41,247 nucleotides of DNA from an uncultured Gammaproteobacteria bacterium. Its GTDB lineage: Bacteria; Patescibacteriota; Patescibacteriia; UBA11705; JABHMO01. Location of the stretch: positions 1 to 41,247 of the forward strand of contig CAYSUN010000004.1 of the NCBI GenBank assembly GCA_964434235.1, written 5' to 3'. Positions within the stretch are counted from its first letter, which is position 1. Each line of letters starts with the position of its first letter. Positions 5,401 to 39,269 of this stretch are shown piece by piece. A model generated the notes under the pieces. It was not told where the DNA came from. It saw only the letters and a program-made list of their open reading frames with translations, and searched no databases. A program made the position numbers and the translations under genes.

Positions 5401-5449
5401 TCTGAAAGTTAGATTGAATTAGGGTAAACACCATTTATTTTTAACTTTT

Positions 5450-5493
5450 ACCCCAAACTATAACGTTATAAAACGTTAAGTTCAGGGCAAGCC
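5450..5493 (-). repeat. Copy R1 of a ~44-nt structured repeat family (accccaaactataacgttataaaacgttaagttcagggcaagcc; the reverse orientation of the copies at 26459 and 29999)
   Basis: Near-identical to 29999..30041 after reverse complementation. It contains the palindrome tataacgttata. Confidence 0.7.
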
Positions 5494-5510
5494 TTTTTAC
5501 TTAATAGAAT

Positions 5511-19327: not shown

Positions 19328-19560
19328 ATGAAGTTTGATAAGTTTGAGGACATTCTAGCTTGGCAAAAAGCAGAAGAATTAACCATTGAGATATACAAAG
19401 TTTTTGCACATTGTCAGGATTTTAATTTTAAAAGGCAAGGCTTCATTTGTCGGTGAAGTTAAAATATATTTCCAAAGAGGAGTACAATGAACTTATAATA
19501 AGAGCAACAGAAATATCAAAAATATTATCAGGCTTGATTAAAACACTTTATACTTTATGA
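19328..19560 (+). pseudogene. Internally deleted remnant of a four-helix-bundle ('23S rRNA IVS') protein gene
   Basis: N-terminus MKFDKFEDILAWQKAEELTIEIYKVF…, then a frame break, then the C-terminus …ISKEEYNELIIRATEISKILSGLIKTL. Compare the intact copies at 28988 and 38708. Confidence 0.5.
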
Positions 19561-19611
19561 ACTTTATACTTTATAAACTTTTAACTTTATAAACTTTTAA
19601 CTTCTATTTTT

Positions 19612-20845: not shown

Positions 20846-22264
20846 ATGTTTACCAAAAGTAAATATAAGATTATAGCCAGTGTCTTGTTGCTAATTTTTA
20901 CTTTAACTGGTTGTACTAAAGGTGGAACGACTGAAGCAAAAAGTGCTTATAAAGCTGAAGTTTTGAATTGGTGGAGTGTTTGGGATGATTATTCAGACGT
21001 TATTCCTTTGATTGATGCTTATCGAGCGCAACACCCAAATGTTCGAGTTGATTATAGAAAACTTCGTTATGAAGAATACGAAAAAGAATTAATAAACGCG
21101 CTAGCTGAAGATCGTGGACCGGATGTTTTTTCAATTCACAATACTTGGATGAAAAGATATGTAAATAAATTGTTGCCAGCTCCAGCCAGTGTTTCTTTGC
21201 CTATTAAATACACTACTGGTGGTATAAAAAAAGAAGAGGTCGTTGAATTTAGGACGAACAATTTACCATCTCCAGCGGTGGTTAGAAAAAACTTTTTAGA
21301 TGTAGTATCACCTGATGTTATTATGCTTGATGAAACTGGTGCAGAAGATACTTGGCGAGAAAAAGTTTGGGGCTTGCCAATGAGTATGGATACTTTGGTT
21401 ATGTTTTATAATAAAGATATTTTAAATAACGCAGGTATTGTTGAACCAGCGAAAAGTTGGACTGAATTTCAGGATCATGTTAAACGAATTACCAAGATTA
21501 GTAGTGAAACTGGTGAAATATTATTATCTGGCGGTGCAATTGGCACAGCTGATAACGTTGAAAGAAGTTTTGATATTTTGTCTTTATTAATGATGCAGAA
21601 TTTGACACCAATGACCAACCAAGCTGGCTACGCAACTTTTACAGAAGCTCCAAAAAATATTACTAATATTCAAACTCCTCCTGCCATTGGAGCAATTGAT
21701 TTTTATGTTCAGTTTGCTTCACCTTTGCACGAGATTTATACTTGGAACAATCAAATGCCAAATTCCATCGACGCTTTTATTGATGGTAAGGTTGCATATA
21801 TTTTTGGTTATTCATATTACAAAGATCGAATAATGGCCGAAGCGCCACAGTTAAATTGGAGTATTGCTTCAATGCCACAAGTTGGGGATCAACAAAAAGT
21901 TAATTATGCTAGTTATTGGGTACAAGGAGTTTCCAAAAAATCAAAAGTTCCTCAGTATGCTTGGGATTTTGTTAATTTTATAACGGCTGAAGCTAATGTT
22001 CCTGTTTATCTAAATAAAGCTGGAACAACAACTGCTCTTCGTTCAACAAAATTAATTAACGAACATCTAGCCAATGAAGCTTTAGCGGTTCAGGCTGAAC
22101 AGTTGTTAACAGCCAAAAGTTGGTATCGAGGGCAAAGTCCTTTGGCGGCCGAAGATATTTTCGCGACATTAATTAATAGTGTATTACAGGCAGATGTCGA
22201 AGTGGAGGATGCCCTAAAAAATTCAGCTAATCAAATAAATTACTCTATAAATAATTCTTTATGA
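20846..22264 (+). CDS. Lipoprotein, extracellular solute-binding protein (ABC-type sugar SBP-like)
   Basis: Lipobox LTGC. SBP family-1-like length and composition. Confidence 0.6.
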   Translation: MFTKSKYKIIASVLLLIFTLTGCTKGGTTEAKSAYKAEVLNWWSVWDDYSDVIPLIDAYRAQHPNVRVDYRKLRYEEYEKELINALAEDRGPDVFSIHNTWMKRYVNKLLPAPASVSLPIKYTTGGIKKEEVVEFRTNNLPSPAVVRKNFLDVVSPDVIMLDETGAEDTWREKVWGLPMSMDTLVMFYNKDILNNAGIVEPAKSWTEFQDHVKRITKISSETGEILLSGGAIGTADNVERSFDILSLLMMQNLTPMTNQAGYATFTEAPKNITNIQTPPAIGAIDFYVQFASPLHEIYTWNNQMPNSIDAFIDGKVAYIFGYSYYKDRIMAEAPQLNWSIASMPQVGDQQKVNYASYWVQGVSKKSKVPQYAWDFVNFITAEANVPVYLNKAGTTTALRSTKLINEHLANEALAVQAEQLLTAKSWYRGQSPLAAEDIFATLINSVLQADVEVEDALKNSANQINYSINNSL

Positions 22265-22626
22265 GAAAATATTTAATTATCACGATCGTAATCTTTTGGG
22301 GTGTACTTGGGGTGGCACAAAGCACTTTTGCTTTTCCTTCGATTGTGCCTGTAAATTGTCAAGGTAATGCAGAAGTTTCAGTGTGTAACTTAAGTGAAGT
22401 AGAATCAATGATCGGAACTGTTGCTCAAATTGTTTTGGGCTTGGCTGGTTCTGTTACATTGGCAGTATTTGTTGTGGCTGGTATTATGTATACAGCTTCT
22501 GGCGGAAATAAAAATATAATCGGCAAAGCAACGGACATGTTGAAAAATGCTTTTTTGGGATTAGTACTTATATTTTTAGCTGGAGTTATTGTAAAAACTT
22601 TATTAAGTGTCTTAAGTAAGTCTTAG
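22261..22626 (+). CDS. VirB2/TrbC-like (T4SS-type) pilin family protein, paralog 1 of 9
   Basis: Signal peptide, then a hydrophobic helix, the loop YTASGGNKN…, and a second hydrophobic helix. Confidence 0.5.
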   Translation: MRKYLIITIVIFWGVLGVAQSTFAFPSIVPVNCQGNAEVSVCNLSEVESMIGTVAQIVLGLAGSVTLAVFVVAGIMYTASGGNKNIIGKATDMLKNAFLGLVLIFLAGVIVKTLLSVLSKS

Positions 22627-22629
22627 CTT

Positions 22630-22992
22630 TTGTATATGAAAAAAATATTAATAATTACATTTTTAAGTCTATTGATTTTACCAACAATAGTGTTTGCGCA
22701 AGGAGCCGTGTCACAGGCAAAAGCGAAAATTACTTCTGTTATGCCAGGGGAACTAGTGAAAGATGCAGATGCAAATATAATTTTAGGAAATGCAATTAGT
22801 AAGGGGTTGGGGATAATCGGCAGTGTGGCTTTGGTTATTTTTATTGCAAGTGGTATAATATGGATGACCTCAGCTGGGAATGAGAAAAGAGTCAAGCTGG
22901 CTGAGCAAAGTTTAATTTGGGCAGCCTTGGGGTTGTTTGTTATATTTTTCAGTTATATTTTTGTTAATAATGTTATTGGAAAGTTGGGTTAA
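22630..22992 (+). CDS. VirB2/TrbC-like pilin paralog 2
   Basis: …IASGIIWMTSAGNEKRVKLAEQ… flanked by two hydrophobic helices. Confidence 0.5.
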   Translation: MYMKKILIITFLSLLILPTIVFAQGAVSQAKAKITSVMPGELVKDADANIILGNAISKGLGIIGSVALVIFIASGIIWMTSAGNEKRVKLAEQSLIWAALGLFVIFFSYIFVNNVIGKLG

Positions 22993-23038
22993 AAAAAATT
23001 AGAAATTTAAATATAAAAAATAAATAATTTTTACGAAC

Positions 23039-23437
23039 ATGAAGTTAAACACAAACAAAATCAAAGTGTTTGCAGCTTTATTCTTAGCTGTTTTTGCACT
23101 TTCGTTTCTAGCGCTTCCAGTTTTAGCACAAAACAATGATCCATTTGGAGTTACTGCTGTTGGTGGTAATTTAGGACTTGGTAATAAAGATTTAAGAGAA
23201 ACAATTGGTTCTATTATCAAGGCTGCTTTAGGCTTTCTTGGTGTAGTTGCTGTGGTTATTGTTTTGATCGGTGGTTTCAAATACATGACAGCTGGTGGTA
23301 GTGATGAAAAAGTTCAAGATGCTAGAAAATACATTGTTTCTGGTATTATTGGTCTTGCTATTGTTTTGAGCGCTTATGCTATTACAACCTTTGTTGTAAG
23401 TAATTTAATTAGTGCAACAAACGCTAATACTTTGTAA
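23039..23437 (+). CDS. VirB2/TrbC-like pilin paralog 3
   Basis: …LIGGFKYMTAGGSDEKVQDARKY…. Confidence 0.5.
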   Translation: MKLNTNKIKVFAALFLAVFALSFLALPVLAQNNDPFGVTAVGGNLGLGNKDLRETIGSIIKAALGFLGVVAVVIVLIGGFKYMTAGGSDEKVQDARKYIVSGIIGLAIVLSAYAITTFVVSNLISATNANTL

Positions 23438-23517
23438 TTTTTTTGAAGTGGGTAGTTTTACTGCCCCTTCTCATTAGCCAATAATTGTTAATAAAGTTTT
23501 GTTGGTTGATGAGAAGT

Positions 23518-23907
23518 ATGAAAAAGATTATTCCTTTTTTGATGGTAATTTTTATATTTTCTGTACTTGCTATTAGCGTACAGCCAGTTTTGGCTGGGGA
23601 CGCAAGCACAACCAGTTTTAAGGATGGACTTGAAAAAACAAACATTGAAGCAAAGTTAGATACTACTGGCACCGTAGAATCAAAGATTGGTAAAATTGCT
23701 GGTATTATTTTTGGCTTTGTTAGTATTGTTTTTCTGATTATGATTGTTTATGGTGGCATTATTTGGATGACTGCTTCAGGAACTGAAGCTAATGTCAAAA
23801 AAGCTAGGGCAACTTTGGTTCATGCTGCAATTGGTTTATTTGTGACGATGATCTCTTATCAAGTTGCTTCTTATGTAATAACGAAAATTGCAGAAACAAC
23901 TTCCTAA
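23518..23907 (+). CDS. VirB2/TrbC-like pilin paralog 4
   Basis: …VYGGIIWMTASGTEANVKKARAT… The start is taken at MKKIIPF. Confidence 0.5.
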   Translation: MKKIIPFLMVIFIFSVLAISVQPVLAGDASTTSFKDGLEKTNIEAKLDTTGTVESKIGKIAGIIFGFVSIVFLIMIVYGGIIWMTASGTEANVKKARATLVHAAIGLFVTMISYQVASYVITKIAETTS

Positions 23908-23913
23908 TTAAAT

Positions 23914-24306
23914 ATGAAAAATGTTTTTTTATTGTTAGTAGTTATAATGTTAATAGTTTTTAACTTTAGTCTTGCACTTGAGCCTGTTTTGGCTGATGGT
24001 GCAACTGACAAAGCTCAAGCTGGTTTAAAAGCCTCAGCTGATACAGCTGGGTTTTCTACAGCCAAAGCTGAACCAGCTGAAGTTATTGGAAAAGCCTTGA
24101 ACATTTTAATTTCTGTTTTAGGAATTATTTTTGTTATTTTGGTTGTTTATGGTGGTGTAACTTGGATGACCGCTACTGGTAATGCTGATCAAGTTAAAAA
24201 AGCTAGATCCATGATTATAGAAGGTGCACTTGGCATGGCTGTTACTTTGGCTTCCTATTCTTTGGCTTCTTATGTAGTAGAAAAAGCATCCTCAGCCACA
24301 CAATAG
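23914..24306 (+). CDS. VirB2/TrbC-like pilin paralog 5
   Basis: …VYGGVTWMTATGNADQVKKARSM…. Confidence 0.5.
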   Translation: MKNVFLLLVVIMLIVFNFSLALEPVLADGATDKAQAGLKASADTAGFSTAKAEPAEVIGKALNILISVLGIIFVILVVYGGVTWMTATGNADQVKKARSMIIEGALGMAVTLASYSLASYVVEKASSATQ

Positions 24307-24348
24307 TAATTTATCATTTAAACACTTAATCACTAAAACAAGAAATCT

Positions 24349-24393
24349 CCGACGTAAAGTACGGAGTCCGTATAGCCTATGGCTCATCGGACA
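24349..24393 (+). repeat. 45-nt hairpin-rich insertion element, copy 1 (tccgacgtaaagtacggag tccgtatagcc-tat-ggctcatcggac)
   Basis: Inserted into a repeat unit that is uninterrupted at 27826..27880. An inverted copy lies at 29425..29469. Confidence 0.75.
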
Positions 24394-24512
24394 ATAAAAC
24401 ATAAAAACAAGAAAACAAGGAACACAGAACACAGAGCAACCACTTAAGTAGGCTTGCACTTACTACTTAACACTTAATACTTTTTTCACTATTTACTTCT
24501 AACTTCTATATT

Positions 24513-24908
24513 ATGTATAATCTAATTTACAACCAAAACTTTAGACGGATTGCTGTAATTGTTGTGATGATTTGTATGGGATTTATTTTTTCAGCTAGTT
24601 ATGGTTTGGCTAGTCCAACAGAAGAATTAAAAAAAGTTGGGACTGGTATGAATATTACAGCGCCAAAACCAATGCCAGAAGTTATCGGACAAATTATCAA
24701 TATTATTTTAACAATATCTGGAATTATAATGGTGATTTTAGTAGTTTGGGGAGGATTTCAGTGGATGACAGCTGGTGGGAATGAAGATCAGGTCAAGAAA
24801 GCCAAGCAATTATTAATTAACGCCGTTATGGGGTTAGCTATAACTTTATCAGCTTATGCAATTGCCTATTTTGCTGTTGAACAATTAGACAAGGCAACAA
24901 CTACTTAG
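24513..24908 (+). CDS. VirB2/TrbC-like pilin paralog 6
   Basis: …VWGGFQWMTAGGNEDQVKKAKQLLINA…. Confidence 0.55.
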   Translation: MYNLIYNQNFRRIAVIVVMICMGFIFSASYGLASPTEELKKVGTGMNITAPKPMPEVIGQIINIILTISGIIMVILVVWGGFQWMTAGGNEDQVKKAKQLLINAVMGLAITLSAYAIAYFAVEQLDKATTT

Positions 24909-24934
24909 AAGAAATAAATAACTAAATAAATATT

Positions 24935-25339
24935 ATGAAAAAGATATTTGCGATTTTGGCAATTTTAAGCATAATGTTAGTTCCAATGTTAGTTTTTGCT
25001 CAGGGTACGACACCGACAGCTGTAGATTATACAAAGGGTGATCCCAAGGCTGCTTTAACTGATTTAAGGGGTAAATCAGGATATTCAGACAAGTCTGACA
25101 ATTTGGTTGGTGTTATTGGTAATGTCATAAAAATTTTATTAACAGCAGTGGGTATTATAGTAGTAGTTCTTGTTGTTTATGCTGGATTTTTGTGGATGAC
25201 AGCTGGTGGCAATGAAGATCAAGTTAAAAAAGCTAAACAATGGTTAATTAACGCAGTGATTGGCTTAGCCTTGATTATGGCAGCTTATGCAATCTCTGAT
25301 TTCGCTATAACTAATTTAACGACAGCCACAAAAGCCTAA
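24935..25339 (+). CDS. VirB2/TrbC-like pilin paralog 7
   Basis: …VYAGFLWMTAGGNEDQVKKAKQWLINAVIGLALIMAAYAIS…. Confidence 0.55.
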   Translation: MKKIFAILAILSIMLVPMLVFAQGTTPTAVDYTKGDPKAALTDLRGKSGYSDKSDNLVGVIGNVIKILLTAVGIIVVVLVVYAGFLWMTAGGNEDQVKKAKQWLINAVIGLALIMAAYAISDFAITNLTTATKA

Positions 25340-25364
25340 CTTAATTAATATCAGAAAAATAGGT

Positions 25365-25763
25365 ATGAAAAAATTAATTCCAGCTTTAACATTGTTTCTA
25401 GTTTTGTTTATGCCAATTGCTGTTGGAGCGCAGGATTTTTTAGGCGCTGATTACCAGGGTCAACAAACAACTGCTTTTGCTGATTTTAAAACAAAATCAG
25501 GCATGGATGGAAAAGAAAGCAGCTTAGTTGCGATTATAGGAAATGTTGTAAGAATAGTTCTAGTTTTGGTCGGAATAATTGTACTTGTGATTATTGTCTA
25601 TGCTGGTTTTTTGTGGATGACTGCTGGTGGTAATGAAGATCAAGTTAAAAAAGCTAAACAATGGTTAATTAACGCGGTAGTAGGTTTGGCCTTAATTATG
25701 GCAGCTTATGCAATTTCAAGTTTTGTAGTTACTAACTTGTCTTCAGCGACAACGATTAATTGA
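25365..25763 (+). CDS. VirB2/TrbC-like pilin paralog 8
   Basis: Its C-terminal ~80 aa are nearly identical to paralogs 7 and 9, while the N-terminal mature region differs. Confidence 0.55.
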   Translation: MKKLIPALTLFLVLFMPIAVGAQDFLGADYQGQQTTAFADFKTKSGMDGKESSLVAIIGNVVRIVLVLVGIIVLVIIVYAGFLWMTAGGNEDQVKKAKQWLINAVVGLALIMAAYAISSFVVTNLSSATTIN

Positions 25764-25792
25764 AGATTAATAACTAATATATAATAAAAATT

Positions 25793-26191
25793 ATGAAAAA
25801 ACTAATTCCAATTTTGGCACTTTTTTCTTTGCTATTATTCCCTGTGGCCACAATGGCGCAAGACATCTTACAATTAGGTTTGGATGATCAGACGGTTGAA
25901 GAAAATATGGATTATTTTGCTTCAGACTTCGGACAGGATACAGGTGGATCTGATTTGGTTGGGATAATCGGAAATATAGTACGAATCGTTTTGACTTTAT
26001 TGGGCGTTGTTGTACTTGTTATTATTGTTTATGCAGGTTTTTTGTGGATGACAGCTGGTGGTAATGAAGATCAAGTTAAGAAAGCTAAACAATGGCTAAT
26101 TAATGCGATAATAGGTTTAGCCTTAATTTTGGCGGCTTATGCAATTTCAAGTTTTGTAGTAACAAACCTTTCTTCTGCGACAACAATGTAA
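25793..26191 (+). CDS. VirB2/TrbC-like pilin paralog 9
   Basis: Same conserved C-terminal core with a divergent N-terminal region. Confidence 0.55.
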   Translation: MKKLIPILALFSLLLFPVATMAQDILQLGLDDQTVEENMDYFASDFGQDTGGSDLVGIIGNIVRIVLTLLGVVVLVIIVYAGFLWMTAGGNEDQVKKAKQWLINAIIGLALILAAYAISSFVVTNLSSATTM

Positions 26192-26210
26192 AATTATTAT
26201 CAAATAAAAA

Positions 26211-26246
26211 AACTGCCCTCCAAGCATGGATAAGGGCAGTTTTTTT
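26211..26246 (+). terminator. Rho-independent terminator after the pilin array (ctgccct…agggcag followed by ttttttt)
   Basis: Read directly. Confidence 0.6.
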
Positions 26247-26387
26247 GTTGTTCCGTAATCAAATTTGATTCGGAACGCTATCTCTATATTAAAGAGCTAC
26301 TTGGTTGTGAAAGTGAGTTCATTTGTTATGCGAATTAACTGAGAGATACTATAGCGAATGTTCGATTGGTAAGTAGTATTTTTTTTT

Positions 26388-26506
26388 AGCTGCCGGCAGG
26401 CACCCGCGCGGTAGCGCATAATAGCCCCCTTCCGATACAAGAATAAATTACAGGGAGAGCTTGCCACGTACTTAACGAAGTTATAGTTCGTGGGGTTGGG
26501 GGTGGG
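26388..26506 (+). repeat. GC-rich structured element B (a copy of element A) carrying a 33-nt insertion of the R-family repeat at 26459..26491
   Basis: Removing gcttgccacgtacttaacgaagttatagttcgt restores cagggaga|ggggttgggggtggg, as in element A. Confidence 0.6.
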
Positions 26507-26538
26507 TTCTTTTCAAGTTTGTAAAACTATTACAACTT

Positions 26539-27543
26539 TTAAAGCAATTTCTTAAAGTTTTCTACAAGTGCTACTGGAGCTGGGTCTGTTTTGTATAATA
26601 AGGCTAGGTTGTAAGAGGTCCATAAACCAAGCATTAAAGTTGTTATCAGTTTAAAAAATTCCGAACCAGCGCGCATATCAAGAATTTCAATATCAAGTTT
26701 TTTGTCTAATATTTTTTTGAAGACAAGCATTCTTTTTTGAATTTGTTTATGATCTTTTTGGTCTTTGAGTATTAATATTTGATAATTGCCGATCGGGTTG
26801 GTATAGCCAACAAGTTCATTGTGATTCATTTCAGGAAAAGCATTCCAAAAACTTGGGATTTTGGTATTTTCATTAAAATTAATTTTCCAAACCATGGCTA
26901 TATATTTCCAAGAATTTGAACTGTAAACTATTGGGACTTTATTGATTAATTTTTTTGATAATTTTTGAGCTTGAGTTTGGATTTGAGCTTGAATTTTCAA
27001 GGCGGAATTTATGTCTTTATTTAAGCTATTAATATTTAGTTTTAGAAAGCCAGAATTGTGCAAAACTTTTAACATCGCACCGACTACATAACCATAGGCT
27101 AGTCTGGGTTGGTTTGTTTCTGGCAGTTTAATAAATTTATAATTTTTCTTTTTGGCTATTTTCTCCAGTTTACCACCATGAGCCAAAATAATAATTTGTT
27201 TCATGCCTTTTTTTTCAGCTTCAGCCAAGGCGGACAAAGTTTCTTCAGTATTACCAGAATATGAATCAAAAAAACCGCACCAGTTCTTATTTACCACTTT
27301 TGGTAATGAATAGTCGCGGTTTATTTTTATTGGAATATTAAAGTTAGTATTGGTTTTTGCCAAGTATGTTTTTACCAAGTTCGCGGGTAAAGCACTTCCG
27401 CCCATACCACAAAAAATTATTTTTTCCGTGTTTTTGGCGATTGAAATAGTAGTTTCTGCCAAAGCGGAAGTAAACTGTTTTGGCAAATCAGCAATTATTT
27501 GATAAATGTTTTGTGAATCAAATTGATGTCGAAGAGATTGCAT
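26539..27543 (-). CDS. SIS-domain sugar-phosphate isomerase, bifunctional phosphoglucose/phosphomannose isomerase-like
   Basis: FCGMGGSA…SYSGNTEET is the SIS signature. About 330 aa, archaeal-type PGI/PMI length. Confidence 0.65.
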   Translation of the reverse strand: MQSLRHQFDSQNIYQIIADLPKQFTSALAETTISIAKNTEKIIFCGMGGSALPANLVKTYLAKTNTNFNIPIKINRDYSLPKVVNKNWCGFFDSYSGNTEETLSALAEAEKKGMKQIIILAHGGKLEKIAKKKNYKFIKLPETNQPRLAYGYVVGAMLKVLHNSGFLKLNINSLNKDINSALKIQAQIQTQAQKLSKKLINKVPIVYSSNSWKYIAMVWKINFNENTKIPSFWNAFPEMNHNELVGYTNPIGNYQILILKDQKDHKQIQKRMLVFKKILDKKLDIEILDMRAGSEFFKLITTLMLGLWTSYNLALLYKTDPAPVALVENFKKLL

Positions 27544-27639
27544 AAAACCTACTTTTGTTTTAGAAAAAACGGTACTTAATTAATTATAACTTAGCATTTT
27601 AAGTTCAATGTTGCAAAGTAGTTATGCACATTCTTTCTC

Positions 27640-27960
27640 AAAAAAACAAAAAAACAAGAAATCAATAAATCATTTAAACACTTGATCACTAAAACAAGAA
27701 ATCAATAAAACATAAAAACAATAAATCATTTAATCACGGAACATAGAACACAGAACACGGAACATTAATCATAGAACATAAAATCAAGAAAACAAGAAAA
27801 CATAAAAACACTTAATCATTAAAACACTTAATCACTAAAACAAGAAATCAATAAAACATAAAAACAAGAAAACAAGGAAAAGAAGGATTCAAGTAACAAG
27901 AAAAATTTAATACTTAATACTTAATACTTTTTCTTTTTATTTACTTTTAATTTTTAACTT
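27640..27960 (+). repeat. G-depleted A/C-rich degenerate repeat tract with units such as acaagaaatcaataaa, cacttaatcactaaaa and acttaatac. A related tract lies at 24311..24500.
   Basis: Read directly. It contains the uninterrupted target of the 45-nt element (caagaaatc|aataaaacat). Confidence 0.7.
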
Positions 27961-28192
27961 ATATTTTTTTAGTTGGAGTATTTAATGATTATTTTGTAGG
28001 TCGCTCAAAGGCCAAAAAGGTCTTGATTTTTTAAAAATAATTTGCTATGCTGAGCTTGTGAATTTAATCTAAATTTATACGCAAAAAAGTCAAAAGTAAA
28101 AACCAAAATTTAATTTAAGCTTTTGGCTTTTGTTATTATTTGCACCTTAGGTTAATTAGAACAATTAGAATAATTAGAATAATTTTAACCAT

Positions 28193-28909
28193 ATGAGTGG
28201 ACATTCAAGATGGGCGAAAATTCATCGCCAAAAAGGTGTGGCTGATGCTGCACGTGGTAATTTATTTACTAAAGTTTCAAAAAACATTTCTCTTTCTGCC
28301 AGAAGTGGTGGTGATCCAGAAATGAACTTTGCCTTAAAACTAGCCATCGATAAAGCAAAGGAATGTAACATGCCAAAAGACAAAATTGAAAATGCTATTA
28401 AACGAGGGACTGGTGAGTTGGGCGGAGCTGTTTTGGAAGAAGTATTGTATGAAGCTTATGCTCCAAGTGGTGCACCTTTGCTTATTACTGGAATTACTGA
28501 TAATAAAAATAGGACTACGCCAGAAATTAAAGCATTATTAAATAAAAATGGAGGTTCTCTTGGGGCGCAAAATTCTGTTCAATGGATGTTTGAAAGAAAA
28601 GGTGTTGTTCGCTTGAACCTAGAAAATGTTCAAGATAAAGATACATTGCTTTTAGAAGCTATTGATTTTGGCGCGGAAGATGTTTTGGAGGAGGATAGTG
28701 GCTTAACAGTTTTAACAAGTTTCACTAACTTTGAAAAAGTAAAAAAAGAGTTAGAAAAAAAAGGTTCAAAAATCGATTACGCAGAAATTGAATGGGTAGC
28801 AAAAGATAAAGTCAAAGGAGAGGGTGCTGAGGTTGAAAAAATAGAAAATTTAGTCGAAAAGCTAGAAGAACATGATGATGTTAATTCAGTATTCACAAAC
28901 GTTTTATAA
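28193..28909 (+). CDS. yebC: YebC/PmpR-family transcriptional regulatory protein
   Basis: MSGHSRWAKIHRQKG…NFALKLAIDKAKECNMPKD. Confidence 0.9.
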   Translation: MSGHSRWAKIHRQKGVADAARGNLFTKVSKNISLSARSGGDPEMNFALKLAIDKAKECNMPKDKIENAIKRGTGELGGAVLEEVLYEAYAPSGAPLLITGITDNKNRTTPEIKALLNKNGGSLGAQNSVQWMFERKGVVRLNLENVQDKDTLLLEAIDFGAEDVLEEDSGLTVLTSFTNFEKVKKELEKKGSKIDYAEIEWVAKDKVKGEGAEVEKIENLVEKLEEHDDVNSVFTNVL

Positions 28910-28987
28910 AAACACGTGTCCCCCGAAGTTTCAACACAGGTAGAAGAATACAAAAAAGCAAAAAAGCAAGAAAACAAGAAAGCAAAT

Positions 28988-29356
28988 ATGAATGATTATC
29001 AAAAAAGATTAAAAGGATTAATGGACGAGTATGTTCATTATGTCTATAAATTGACAAAAAAATTTCCGCGGGAAGAAATATATGGCTTAGTTTCACAGTT
29101 AAGAAGATCTGCAATTTCCATAATACTAAATTATATTGAAGGATACGCAAGAAGAAGAACGCTAGTTAGGTTTAATATGTTAGAAACGTCGTATGGTTCA
29201 TTTCAAGAAACTAAATATATAGTGCAATTTTCTTTAATTGAGGGTTATATTTCAAAAGAAGATTATTTAAATATAGAATTATTAGAAAAAGAAATTGGTG
29301 CTATGCTGTGGACCGAATTAACAAAATTAGAAGGCAGTATTAAAGCTGTAAAGTAA
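28988..29356 (+). CDS. Four-helix-bundle protein ('23S rRNA intervening-sequence protein' family)
   Basis: …EEIYGLVSQLRRSAISIILNYIEGYARR… is the family signature. About 122 aa from the ATG at 28988. Confidence 0.75.
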   Translation: MNDYQKRLKGLMDEYVHYVYKLTKKFPREEIYGLVSQLRRSAISIILNYIEGYARRRTLVRFNMLETSYGSFQETKYIVQFSLIEGYISKEDYLNIELLEKEIGAMLWTELTKLEGSIKAVK

Positions 29357-29424
29357 TAATATTTATTTGGCTCTTTGTTTTTTAATCGTGTATTTCTCTT
29401 TTAGTGGCTTGTGTTTTCTTGTCC

Positions 29425-29469
29425 GATGAGCCATGGGCTATACGGACTCCGTACTTTACGTCGGAGATT
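29425..29469 (-). repeat. 45-nt hairpin-rich insertion element, copy 2 (inverted orientation, 1 mismatch located in a hairpin loop)
   Basis: Its reverse complement equals 24349..24393 except tat→cat in the loop of the agcc/ggct stem. Confidence 0.75.
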
Positions 29470-29498
29470 TATTGATTTTTTGTTTTATTGAAGTCTCT

Positions 29499-29996
29499 AT
29501 GTCTACCAAAAAAGTAATATTGGGCATTGATCCAGGCTATGGCATTACTGGTTATGGTGTTGTTAGTGTTGAAGGATCAAAAATAACTTGCCTTGATTAC
29601 GGTGTTATTACTACTCGGGCTGGGGATGATTTTGAACTTCGTCTCAAAGATTTGAATAAAGATTTGAAGTTAATCATTAAAAAATATAAACCAGACTTGG
29701 TTGGGGTAGAAGATCTTTTCTTTGCTAAAAATGTTAAAACTGCCATGAAGGTCAGTCACGCCCGTGGCGTAATTATTTTAACTGCAGTTCAGGCTAATGT
29801 GCCGATTGTTGAATTTACTCCCGTTCAAGTTAAGCAGGCGATTTCAGGCTATGGTAAGGCCGAGAAAGCACAAGTTCAGCAAATGGTAAAAACATTCTTG
29901 AACCTGAAACAAATACCAAAACCAGATGATGCGGCTGATGCCTTGGCTGTGGCAGTTTGTGCGGCTAATTCTTTTAAATTAAAAAGTAAAAATTAA
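29499..29996 (+). CDS. ruvC: Crossover junction endodeoxyribonuclease RuvC
   Basis: ILGIDPGYGITGYGVV… The catalytic D and E residues are conserved. The start is taken at MSTKK. Confidence 0.9.
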   Translation: MSTKKVILGIDPGYGITGYGVVSVEGSKITCLDYGVITTRAGDDFELRLKDLNKDLKLIIKKYKPDLVGVEDLFFAKNVKTAMKVSHARGVIILTAVQANVPIVEFTPVQVKQAISGYGKAEKAQVQQMVKTFLNLKQIPKPDDAADALAVAVCAANSFKLKSKN

Positions 29997-29998
29997 AA

Positions 29999-30041
29999 GG
30001 CTTGCCCTGAACTTAACGTCTTATAGCGTTATAGTTCTGGG
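29999..30041 (+). repeat. Copy R3 of the ~44-nt structured repeat (ggcttgccctgaacttaacgtcttatagcgttatagttctggg)
   Basis: Matches the reverse complement of 5450..5493. Confidence 0.7.
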
Positions 30042-30135
30042 TAGATAGTAAATAAAAAATGATAAATATTAGTATTTAACTATTGTTTATCGCTTATTGT
30101 TTATTATTATTTATTTTTTAAGTAAGTATTCATTT

Positions 30136-38520: not shown

Positions 38521-38707
38521 GTTTTGTCTCCTTGTAACTAGTTAATGAACAATTTACTAAATAGATTATCTTATTTGTTAAAATTTGTCAACAGTTTATC
38601 CATTGTTGGCTAAAGAAAATTTTGCTATAATAACAACAGAATTCTTAGTTGGAAAAGGGTTGATAGAAAGTCGAAAATGGTTATAGAAATTGGAAAATTG
38701 AAAATAG

Positions 38708-39109
38708 ATGGAAGAAAAAACAACTATTAAATCATTCCAAGATTTTCGAGCTTATCAAAATTTGTATAAGGCAATGCTTATTGTCCACAAGGAAATAGTA
38801 ATTAAATTACCCAGTGATGAAAAATTTGACTTAGTTTCTCAAATGAAAAGAGCGTCAAAAGCTGGGCCAGCCTTATTAGCGGAAGGTTTTTCAAAAAGAT
38901 ACCAAGAAAAAAATTGGGGAAAATATCTGAACGATACACTTGGTGAAGCTAATGAAATGATACATCATTTATCTGTTTGTATTGATATATATGCTTCTTG
39001 TGTTGATATTAATCAATGCAAAGAAGTAATTGATATATATGATCTAGCCTGTAGACAAACAACAAAACTCAAACAAGCGTGGGTTAATTTTCACAAGAAG
39101 AACGATTAA
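38708..39109 (+). CDS. Four-helix-bundle protein ('23S rRNA IVS protein' family), third intact copy
   Basis: …FDLVSQMKRASKAGPALLAEGFSKR… Flanked by imperfect inverted repeats (38666..38711 versus 39121..39260). Confidence 0.75.
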   Translation: MEEKTTIKSFQDFRAYQNLYKAMLIVHKEIVIKLPSDEKFDLVSQMKRASKAGPALLAEGFSKRYQEKNWGKYLNDTLGEANEMIHHLSVCIDIYASCVDINQCKEVIDIYDLACRQTTKLKQAWVNFHKKND

Positions 39110-39120
39110 TATATTAAAAA

Positions 39121-39260
39121 CTATTTTCTATTTTCCTTTATCATCTAAACTAATCTCTATTTTCCAACAACCAATTTCAAATAAATAACGTAAGTGAGTT
39201 AAGGACTATTTTCTATTTTCCTTTATCTAAACTAATTTCCATTTTCCAATAACTAATTTC
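39121..39260 (+). repeat. Two about 55-bp direct repeats (ctattttctattttcctttatc…ccaa(c/t)aac(c/t)aatttc) separated by about 28 bp, upstream of smc
   Basis: Read directly. Confidence 0.6.
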
Positions 39261-39269
39261 TATAAGAAA

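Follow-up and report, generated by a model that had tools for sequence, protein, structure and literature searches.

The window analysed here, the whole 41,247-nt stretch of contig CAYSUN010000004.1 (assembly GCA_964434235.1), is a low-GC chromosome segment (~33% GC) that carries two inverted copies of a 45-nt sequence with two predicted hairpins. The sequence is a discrete, multi-copy and species-specific unit, found behind a fixed tetranucleotide and in a fixed orientation on one strand of the repetitive arrays in which it lies. It is best explained, with a probability of about 60%, as a lineage-specific, multi-copy, non-autonomous miniature mobile palindromic element. The copies in the window are:

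24348-24392, + strand: copy 1 of the 45-nt twin-hairpin element, the exact 45-mer TCCGACGTAAAGTACGGAGTCCGTATAGCCTATGGCTCATCGGAC
29421-29465, - strand: copy 2, the reverse complement, with one mismatch against copy 1

The 45-nt element and its predicted fold

Two inverted copies had been reported in an earlier note on this DNA and were recovered here, with positions that shift by 1 nt for copy 1 and by 4 nt for copy 2. The copies differ at 1/45 bases, a T>C change in copy 2 (TAT versus CAT) that falls, as previously noted, in the loop (3 nt) closed by the inner stem AGCC/GGCT, and matches to the pair were obtained in 0/100 dinucleotide-preserving shuffles. Because both copies sit in similar A-rich arrays, their inverted similarity reaches 82 nt at 88% identity (24323-24404 and 29409-29490). 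Copy 1 is located, in agreement with the earlier note, between paralogs 5 (23914-24306) and 6 (24513-24908) of nine pilin genes of the type IV secretion system (T4SS) type (PF18895), 120 nt upstream of paralog 6. Copy 2 is located in a T-rich array downstream of a four-helix-bundle (4HB) gene and upstream of ruvC as proposed, but at 33 nt from the ruvC ATG (29499) and not at 29 nt. The ruvC start was corrected because the start of the long open reading frame (ORF), at 29433, lies within the element and is spurious; position 29499 was chosen since the Pfam RuvC domain begins at residue 29 of the long ORF, and the ENA gene call in the window-identical contig L001 agrees. Annotation of ruvC by its longest ORF would add 22 spurious residues (29433-29498).

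Hairpin 1 is TCCGAC-GTAAA-GTaCGGA, with arms TCCGAC and GTaCGGA, and hairpin 2 is GTCCG-TAT-AGCC-TAT-GGCT-CAT-CGGAC, in which GTCCG/CGGAC encloses the inner AGCC/GGCT. Two adjoining stem-loops per copy, as first described in the earlier note, were predicted on either strand of copies 1 and 2, and the twin hairpin is the predicted minimum-free-energy fold both as RNA (-18.1 to -19.1 kcal/mol, z -2.7 to -4.2, both copies and both strands) and as DNA (-9.3 to -9.7 kcal/mol, z -3.2 to -3.5). The hairpin arms (TCCGAC, GTaCGGA, TCCGTA and caTCGGA) are variants of one palindromic core, TCCGA/TCGGA, used four times, and hairpin 2 looks like the inverse of hairpin 1; the 45-mer is made of two tandem copies of one hairpin design. 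As the four arms share this core, the first arm can also pair with the last in a closed alternative fold, which is predicted to be 1.7-4.5 kcal/mol less stable than the twin hairpin.

Further copies, exact borders and the AATC target

GTDB representatives and JGI metagenomes were searched with a pattern of the outer stems only, comprising 19 fixed bases. Among 35 matches in the JGI metagenomes the same element was found in two low-GC contigs, one identical to it at 46/46 positions (L028) and one at 45/46 (L047), the latter being a fifth locus from another metagenome. The L047 copy has AGTC in place of AGCC, giving a G.U/G.T pair on the TCCGACG strand only, and this change and the loop change in copy 2 are the only two substitutions seen. 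Two more copies are present in an ENA contig (L062):

L062 1841-1885, + strand: copy 43 nt upstream of uvrA
L062 19-63, - strand: second copy, 1.8 kb from the uvrA copy and in opposite orientation

Contig L062 is from sample ERZ27248922, which is also the source of L001, and its UvrA is 100% identical to that of the JGI contig L028/L063, which carries the same uvrA copy; the L028 sample in addition contains the second 4HB gene of the window (L067). From these ties the organism has at least four copies in the ~48 kb reached, that is the window and L062, and this count is, together with L047, a lower bound. For dnaN, DnaA, the penicillin-binding protein (PBP) and the second 4HB protein, the ENA and JGI data contained only short contigs within the range of the window, or none. 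Viral contigs (IMG/VR, three patterns), phage records and plasmid records were without the element, the one match obtained there being a chance match in a coding region (L064).

These copies refute the idea that the pair is only a local duplication, or a palindrome arisen by chance, outside any larger family. The earlier note had named a total of two copies in the genome, with no structure-preserving variation, as the finding that would make simple local duplication the explanation. The GTDB species representatives fit such a reading, as they gave just 13 single matches, all at 53-76% GC with unrelated interiors and judged to be chance, the source genome being absent from this set or masked in it. 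The shuffling control decides against it, as do the near-identical copies, which are found at loci of the same organism not linked to the pair and also in a second metagenome.

An unoccupied site, which the earlier note had recognised, was confirmed at 64/65 identity. This site and the arrays concerned are:

27816-27879, + strand: unoccupied site, 64/65 identity to the two flanks of copy 1, with exactly the 45 nt absent
27638-27904, + strand: large A-rich array of ~33 units with 8-nt period WCANNNAA and 10 AATC sites, including the empty site
24307-24347, + strand: A-rich array left of copy 1, ending in AATC
24393-24435, + strand: A-rich array right of copy 1, AATAAAACATAAAAACAAGAAAACAAGG...
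29466-29498, - strand: array on the 5' side of copy 2, ending in AATC on the - strand, which also forms the outer portion of the inverted repeat around the 4HB gene
29357-29420, - strand: array on the 3' side of copy 2, AAGAAAACACAAGCC... on the - strand, from the 4HB stop codon to the element

Positions 27816-27849 of the empty site equal the left flank of copy 1 at 33/34 and positions 27850-27879 its right flank at 30/30. The junction between 27849 (C) and 27850 (A), AATC/AATAAAAC, coincides with the position of the 45 nt in copy 1, where the left flank ends in AAGAAATC and the right flank opens with AATAAAACAT (junctions 24347/24393). One C is ambiguous at the border, so that there is no target-site duplication or one of at most 1 nt. 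Other length differences among paralogous spacers, 16 and 24 nt, are multiples of 8, whereas 45 is not. The sequence comparison shows that gain or loss of the element involved precisely these 45 nt and left no target duplication, and the word inserted in the earlier note is sound for a precise presence/absence difference, with which both insertion and precise excision are compatible. Contig L047 was considered as a filled ortholog of the empty site and rejected, its neighbouring gene not being the phosphoglucose isomerase (PGI) gene and having no match in the window.

The tetranucleotide AATC is found directly 5' of the element at 5/5 loci, and the 3' flank at the five loci is A(A/T)(T/G)(A/G)AA. 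Pairwise identity among the five loci is 98.2% in the element, falls to 56-59% over the adjoining 20 nt and is 34-39% over the 20 nt beyond these. Since AATC is rare in the large array (10/267 positions), placement of the element within arrays is not random. Its orientation is constant relative to the A-rich strand of the 8-nt-periodic WCANNNAA arrays. With respect to genes both orientations occur, sense ahead of pilin 6 and uvrA and antisense ahead of ruvC and of a TTGACA-17-TAGAAT promoter in L062. This fixed placement on the A-rich strand means that element orientation tracks the array strand and not the neighbouring genes.

Intergenic arrays with a strict 8-nt period were observed, besides the large one at 27638-27904, at 24307-24435, 28944-28987, 29357-29498, 38652-38705, 39121-39256 and 19545-19603, which includes the arrays next to copies 1 and 2. 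Array copies differ in length by multiples of 8, and the array unit differs by lineage, being AAATCCGA in L039, AAAG in L059 and GTAACNNG in L053. Short-read assemblies are broken by the arrays, as in L001, which begins at window position 27966 in T-rich repeats just beyond the large array.

Proposed mobility of the element and alternative explanations

The suggestion in the earlier note of a mobile palindrome resembling repetitive extragenic palindromes (REP) or miniature inverted-repeat transposable elements (MITE) is supported by the further copies, sharp borders, invariant AATC, seamless empty site and element-free relatives. Four syntenic relatives are without the element: L050-52 (RuvC 77% identical), L053-55 (RuvC 74% identical), L059-61 (GCA_018703365.1) and L071/L072 (RuvC 77% identical). 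All four keep the gene order pilins, PGI, yebC, ruvC, PKD, ATP-grasp and PBP. A covariance model of the element run over 152 kb (window and relatives) returned the known copies only, and a regular-expression search agreed for the relatives. The yebC-ruvC gap is 21 nt in L050 and holds a short AACAAGAAAAC-type array in L071 without the element, while L059 has the orthologous 4HB gene with a 34-nt gap to ruvC and no element. Arrays of AACAAGAAATCA type like those in the window, also without the element, occur in L071/L058, and from such relatives the arrays probably predate the element, or at least have a wider distribution.

The same relatives bear on the proposal, made in the earlier note, that the inverted pair is a substrate for programmed or frequent inversion of the 5-kb segment, flipping pilins 6-9, PGI, yebC and the 4HB gene. 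Inverted identity of 45-82 bp suffices for occasional RecA-dependent inversion, and the second pair from the same genome, in L062, is also inverted at 1.8 kb distance. Nevertheless, gene order and orientation in the window are as in all four relatives, and this common arrangement places the 5-kb segment in its ancestral orientation. In two independent assemblies (contigs L001 and L057) copy 2 is joined to the 4HB gene and ruvC as in the window and still has its private C, L062 and L028 agree on the uvrA junction, and no invertase or recombinase gene is present in the window. An inversion would also split the pilin cluster and part yebC from ruvC. With a single arrangement in the assembled contigs of L001, L057 and the relatives, a switch of this kind deserves hardly any credence.

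The strongest alternative, but an unlikely one, is an RNA element acting in cis, as a weak terminator, a processing site or a stabiliser of mRNA, that is under selection in intergenic spacers and spreads by array duplication or gene conversion instead of transposition; the earlier note had likewise considered a small structured RNA. It would account for a stable twin hairpin amid unstructured A-rich sequence, for copies between co-directional and probably transcribed genes (pilin 5/6, radical-SAM/uvrA and 4HB/ruvC), for the T-rich tail that follows the second hairpin in reverse orientation, and for the L047 substitution, which retains pairing only as G.U on one strand. The orientation to transcription is however mixed, being sense for pilin 6 and uvrA, antisense for ruvC and upstream of the -35 in L062, and the same operons exist in relatives without the element. 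The loops are conserved as much as the stems, which fits recent spread and not selection on structure, and a 45-nt indel is no multiple of the array period. A consensus terminator scan did not call the element on either strand, and the real terminators of this genome differ from it, being single long GC stems between A and T runs. The element was also unmatched in Rfam 15, in the window and related loci, both at the gathering threshold and at E<=10. Where the element forms a structured insert in a spacer (4HB-ruvC, rlmN-like-uvrA), any effect on the neighbouring genes is probably a by-product.

At two of the five loci the element closely precedes a repair gene, ruvC by 33 nt and uvrA by 43 nt, as would be expected if it were an operator with four TCCGA/TCGGA half-sites for a DNA-repair regulator, and the four-arm design is more regular still in the class 2 repeat described below. 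Yet of the remaining three copies one is placed ahead of a pilin paralog, one ahead of an unknown gene and one ahead of the promoter of an unknown 150-aa ORF, and ruvC of the four relatives is without such a site. All 45 nt, loops included, are moreover 98% identical between sites, unlike sets of operators, and regulation of this type is very improbable.

The class 2 repeat, CTCCGACGCTTCGGTCGGAGTCCGACATCCTGCAGGATCGTCGGAC, was found in three JGI contigs (L039, L027 and L046, GC 36-42%) representing two loci, one at rpmG/tRNA-Trp and the other in the 5' part of a gene for a membrane protein. It has the 46-nt frame and the first 8 and last 6 bases of the element, with perfect arms TCCGAC/GTCGGA, and the inner stem is ATCC/GGAT in place of AGCC/GGCT, one pair being changed on both sides. 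Class 2 sits between A-rich and T-rich arrays of 8-nt period, which together are predicted to form a hairpin of ~190 nt capped by the twin hairpin (array hairpins z -3.6 and -5.4). An estimate from base composition makes the GC-rich pattern unlikely by chance in AT-rich DNA. Identity with the element at unconstrained positions is only 10/27, so that homology of class 2 to the element is at most plausible.

Two groups of matches at higher GC were set aside as chance or analogous: a family at 56-59% GC in L033/L031, L048/L021 and L041/L034 (CTCCGAATGAAATATCGGAG followed by a variable hairpin), and a cluster of TCCGATCGGA palindromes at 67% GC. About 28 chance matches are expected at the GC of these groups (contigs of 56-70% GC), in which 3/27 free columns are invariant. 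The repeat at 56-59% GC, from an unrelated organism, itself looks like a structured repeat family of ~70 nt at three loci: a conserved CCTTCGRCWRRCT lead is followed by the invariant hairpin CTCCGAATGAAATATCGGAG, a second hairpin GTCCGAYG...CATCGGAC with covarying interior and a third, variable hairpin, and it has no match in Rfam.

Several observations weigh against a mobile element. No transposase, REP-associated tyrosine transposase (RAYT) or recombinase gene was found among the ORFs scanned in the 48 kb of window and L062, and the search for an IS200/IS605-like TnpA that the earlier note had proposed was likewise negative in these 48 kb. The 150-aa ORF between the L062 copies was considered as an HUH transposase (HFH at 67-69) and rejected, with no Pfam match and no tyrosine in its C-terminal half. 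Covariation, also proposed as a check, was not significant over all classes in a formal count of pairs; for 9/16 of the pairs the search pattern itself allowed no variation. Both borders of the element are at the hairpin feet, so that neither offset cleavage sites nor guide tetranucleotides could be accommodated, and the GTAG and CGTC tags of REP are absent. The empty site gives no direction, either insertion or precise excision. Copy 1 and L047 have a common right flank and the two L062 copies have ~30 nt of left flank in common, so that some copies may stem from duplication or gene conversion of array and element together and the independent insertions may number only two or three.

If the element is mobile, an enzyme encoded elsewhere in the genome would move it in trans and would recognise the folded hairpins in single-stranded DNA. 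Such an enzyme could be modelled on the RAYTs of REP and REPIN or on HUH/Y1 transposases from IS200/IS605 (PMC3116915), with whose elements the element would share insertion 3' of a short fixed target, lack of duplication and seamless excision. By this analogy an HUH-type mechanism is a tentative proposal, roughly half as probable as mobility itself. A more speculative and rather improbable extension is that twin hairpin, 8-nt WCANNNAA arrays and PF05635 bAvd-like 4HB cassettes make up one undescribed mobile system of the candidate phyla radiation (CPR). The arrays would then be its ends or targets and the 45-mer its minimal element, made of two enzyme-binding hairpins only. Because the borders sit at the hairpin feet, the mover would not be a TnpA of IS608 type, and the element would be among the smallest mobile DNAs known and have a new cleavage geometry.

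Neighbouring genes, 4HB cassettes and other repeats

The genes and cassettes surrounding the element are:

Start of the window: dnaN and dnaA (- strand), then rpmH, rnpA, yidD and surface-polysaccharide genes
22261-26191: nine PF18895 T4SS-type pilin paralogs
After the pilins, - strand: PGI-like SIS gene
After PGI: yebC, 4HB gene and ruvC
28988-29356, + strand: 4HB gene (PF05635/bAvd-like), true start ATG 28988, which is context and not part of the element
After ruvC: PKD/7TM gene, ATP-grasp genes, class A PBP, second 4HB gene and SMC
28946-29495 of the window: 4HB cassette
38675-39265 of the window: 4HB cassette
L071 13513-13988: 4HB cassette
L059 2965-3396: 4HB cassette

RuvC, UvrA and the 4HB protein have their closest homologs in records that bear the label Candidatus Falkowbacteria or Parcubacteria group. 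The 4HB gene next to copy 2 is bracketed by inverted arrays at 28946-28973 and 29468-29495. Every PF05635 gene examined ('23S rRNA-intervening-sequence protein', bAvd-like) is bracketed in this manner by inverted low-complexity arrays of 28-41 nt, 76-91% complementary and placed right at the start and stop codons. The location of the cassette varies, being between yebC and ruvC (window and L059), after ATP-grasp (L058/L071) or between PBP and SMC (second copy in the window), and the cassette is absent from L050-55. This suggests either a relocating gene cassette or an mRNA with pairing 5' and 3' ends. The element as end-mark of a mobile 4HB cassette was rejected, given that L059-61 have yebC-4HB-ruvC with the 34-nt spacer and no element, and L058/L071 have cassette and arrays without it.

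Other repeats were also observed in the window. A second palindromic family has copies at 5434-5502 (+ strand) and 29990-30058 (- strand), 69 nt at 83% identity with a 42-nt core at 95%, for which one long imperfect hairpin is predicted. One copy ends 10 nt before the rpmH start and the other opens at the ruvC stop on the opposite strand, where the spacer in the relatives is too short for this family. A perfect palindrome at 1709-1756 (22-bp arms, 4-nt loop, -39.7 kcal/mol) lies on the - strand in the tRNA-Leu/tRNA-Gly spacer and is preserved in two further assemblies of the organism. The convergent spacer of pilin 9 and PGI (347 nt) contains a hairpin GTTCCGtAATCAAATTTGATTCGGAAC (26249-26275, z -4.5) after a bidirectional terminator, and beyond this hairpin lies a GC-rich non-coding stretch (26380-26520) that is unusual for this genome and overlaps no Rfam match at E<=1.

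Comparison with known miniature palindromes

Miniature palindromes such as REP, REPIN and the small dispersed repeats (SDR) are well studied in Proteobacteria and Cyanobacteria. For the reduced CPR genomes, of about 1 Mb, no description of such repeats was found, the single full-text search directed at them giving nothing relevant. Filled and empty site in one contig, a strict 4-nt target and a two-hairpin body make the element a compact system for the question of the mover. The element also explains assembly breaks in these metagenome-assembled genomes and serves as a strain marker, and relocating 4HB cassettes with inverted array flanks may bear on the spread of this widespread gene family.

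Elements of IS200/IS605 and the palindrome-associated transposable elements (PATE), which derive from them and have no protein of their own, insert 3' of a conserved target of 4-5 nt without target duplication. IS608, the model for their mechanism, is cleaved at a distance from its hairpins, at sites 19 nt to the 5' side and 10 nt to the 3' side that are read by guide tetranucleotides. The element resembles them in having similar hairpins at both ends on the same strand, and it agrees with PATE in its 5' AATC target at 5/5 copies, its seamless empty site and the lack of duplication. It differs from IS200/IS605 in its length of only 45 nt, in the absence of a TnpA gene from the 48 kb scanned and in its borders at the hairpin feet, a geometry that departs from that of IS608. 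A classical MITE does not fit either, the terminal inverted match being only 5 nt (TCCGA/TCGGA) with no target duplication.

Cyanobacterial SDR were reportedly described by Elhai et al. in 2008 (cited in PMC3116915) as imperfect palindromes of tens of nt, often nested in other repeats. The element is like them in its small size, imperfect palindromy and nesting within repeats, in its presence or absence in otherwise identical sequence and in having neither target duplication nor a known mobilising enzyme, but it differs in sequence and host phylum and by its twin hairpin and strict AATC target in an 8-nt array.

Like REP and REPIN, the element measures tens of nt and is extragenic, palindromic, multi-copy and species-specific (PMC3116915, PMC3733652), all its copies (four in ~48 kb and L047) being intergenic. 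Both are made of two copies of one palindrome that may take a two-hairpin or a closed fold, and both are non-coding and presumably depend on an enzyme acting in trans; RAYTs have been linked with the mobilisation of REP and REPIN (Bertels & Rainey 2011, PMC3116915; Di Nocera et al. 2013, PMC3733652). REP superfamilies are defined by an unpaired GTAG or CGTC tag beside an 8-9-bp stem (PMC3733652). In contrast, the element has stems of 5-6 bp and no GTAG or CTAC, and its sole CGTC (reverse strand) lies within the hairpin-1 stem. Its two hairpins abut directly and are predicted to be favoured over one long hairpin of REPIN type, it occupies a fixed AATC/A site in low-complexity arrays, and its host is a CPR bacterium. 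The dRS3 repeats of Neisseria (CGTC-1 family) are 20-bp units that flank RS segments and act as phage integration sites (PMC3733652). The intergenic mosaic elements of Neisseria resemble the element as small palindromic repeats within mosaic repeat-rich arrays, but its sequence is unrelated to dRS3 and nothing comparable to RS flanking or phage integration was shown for it. The element appears to fall outside REP, REPIN, PATE and SDR by the features on which membership of each can be tested, but it works like them.

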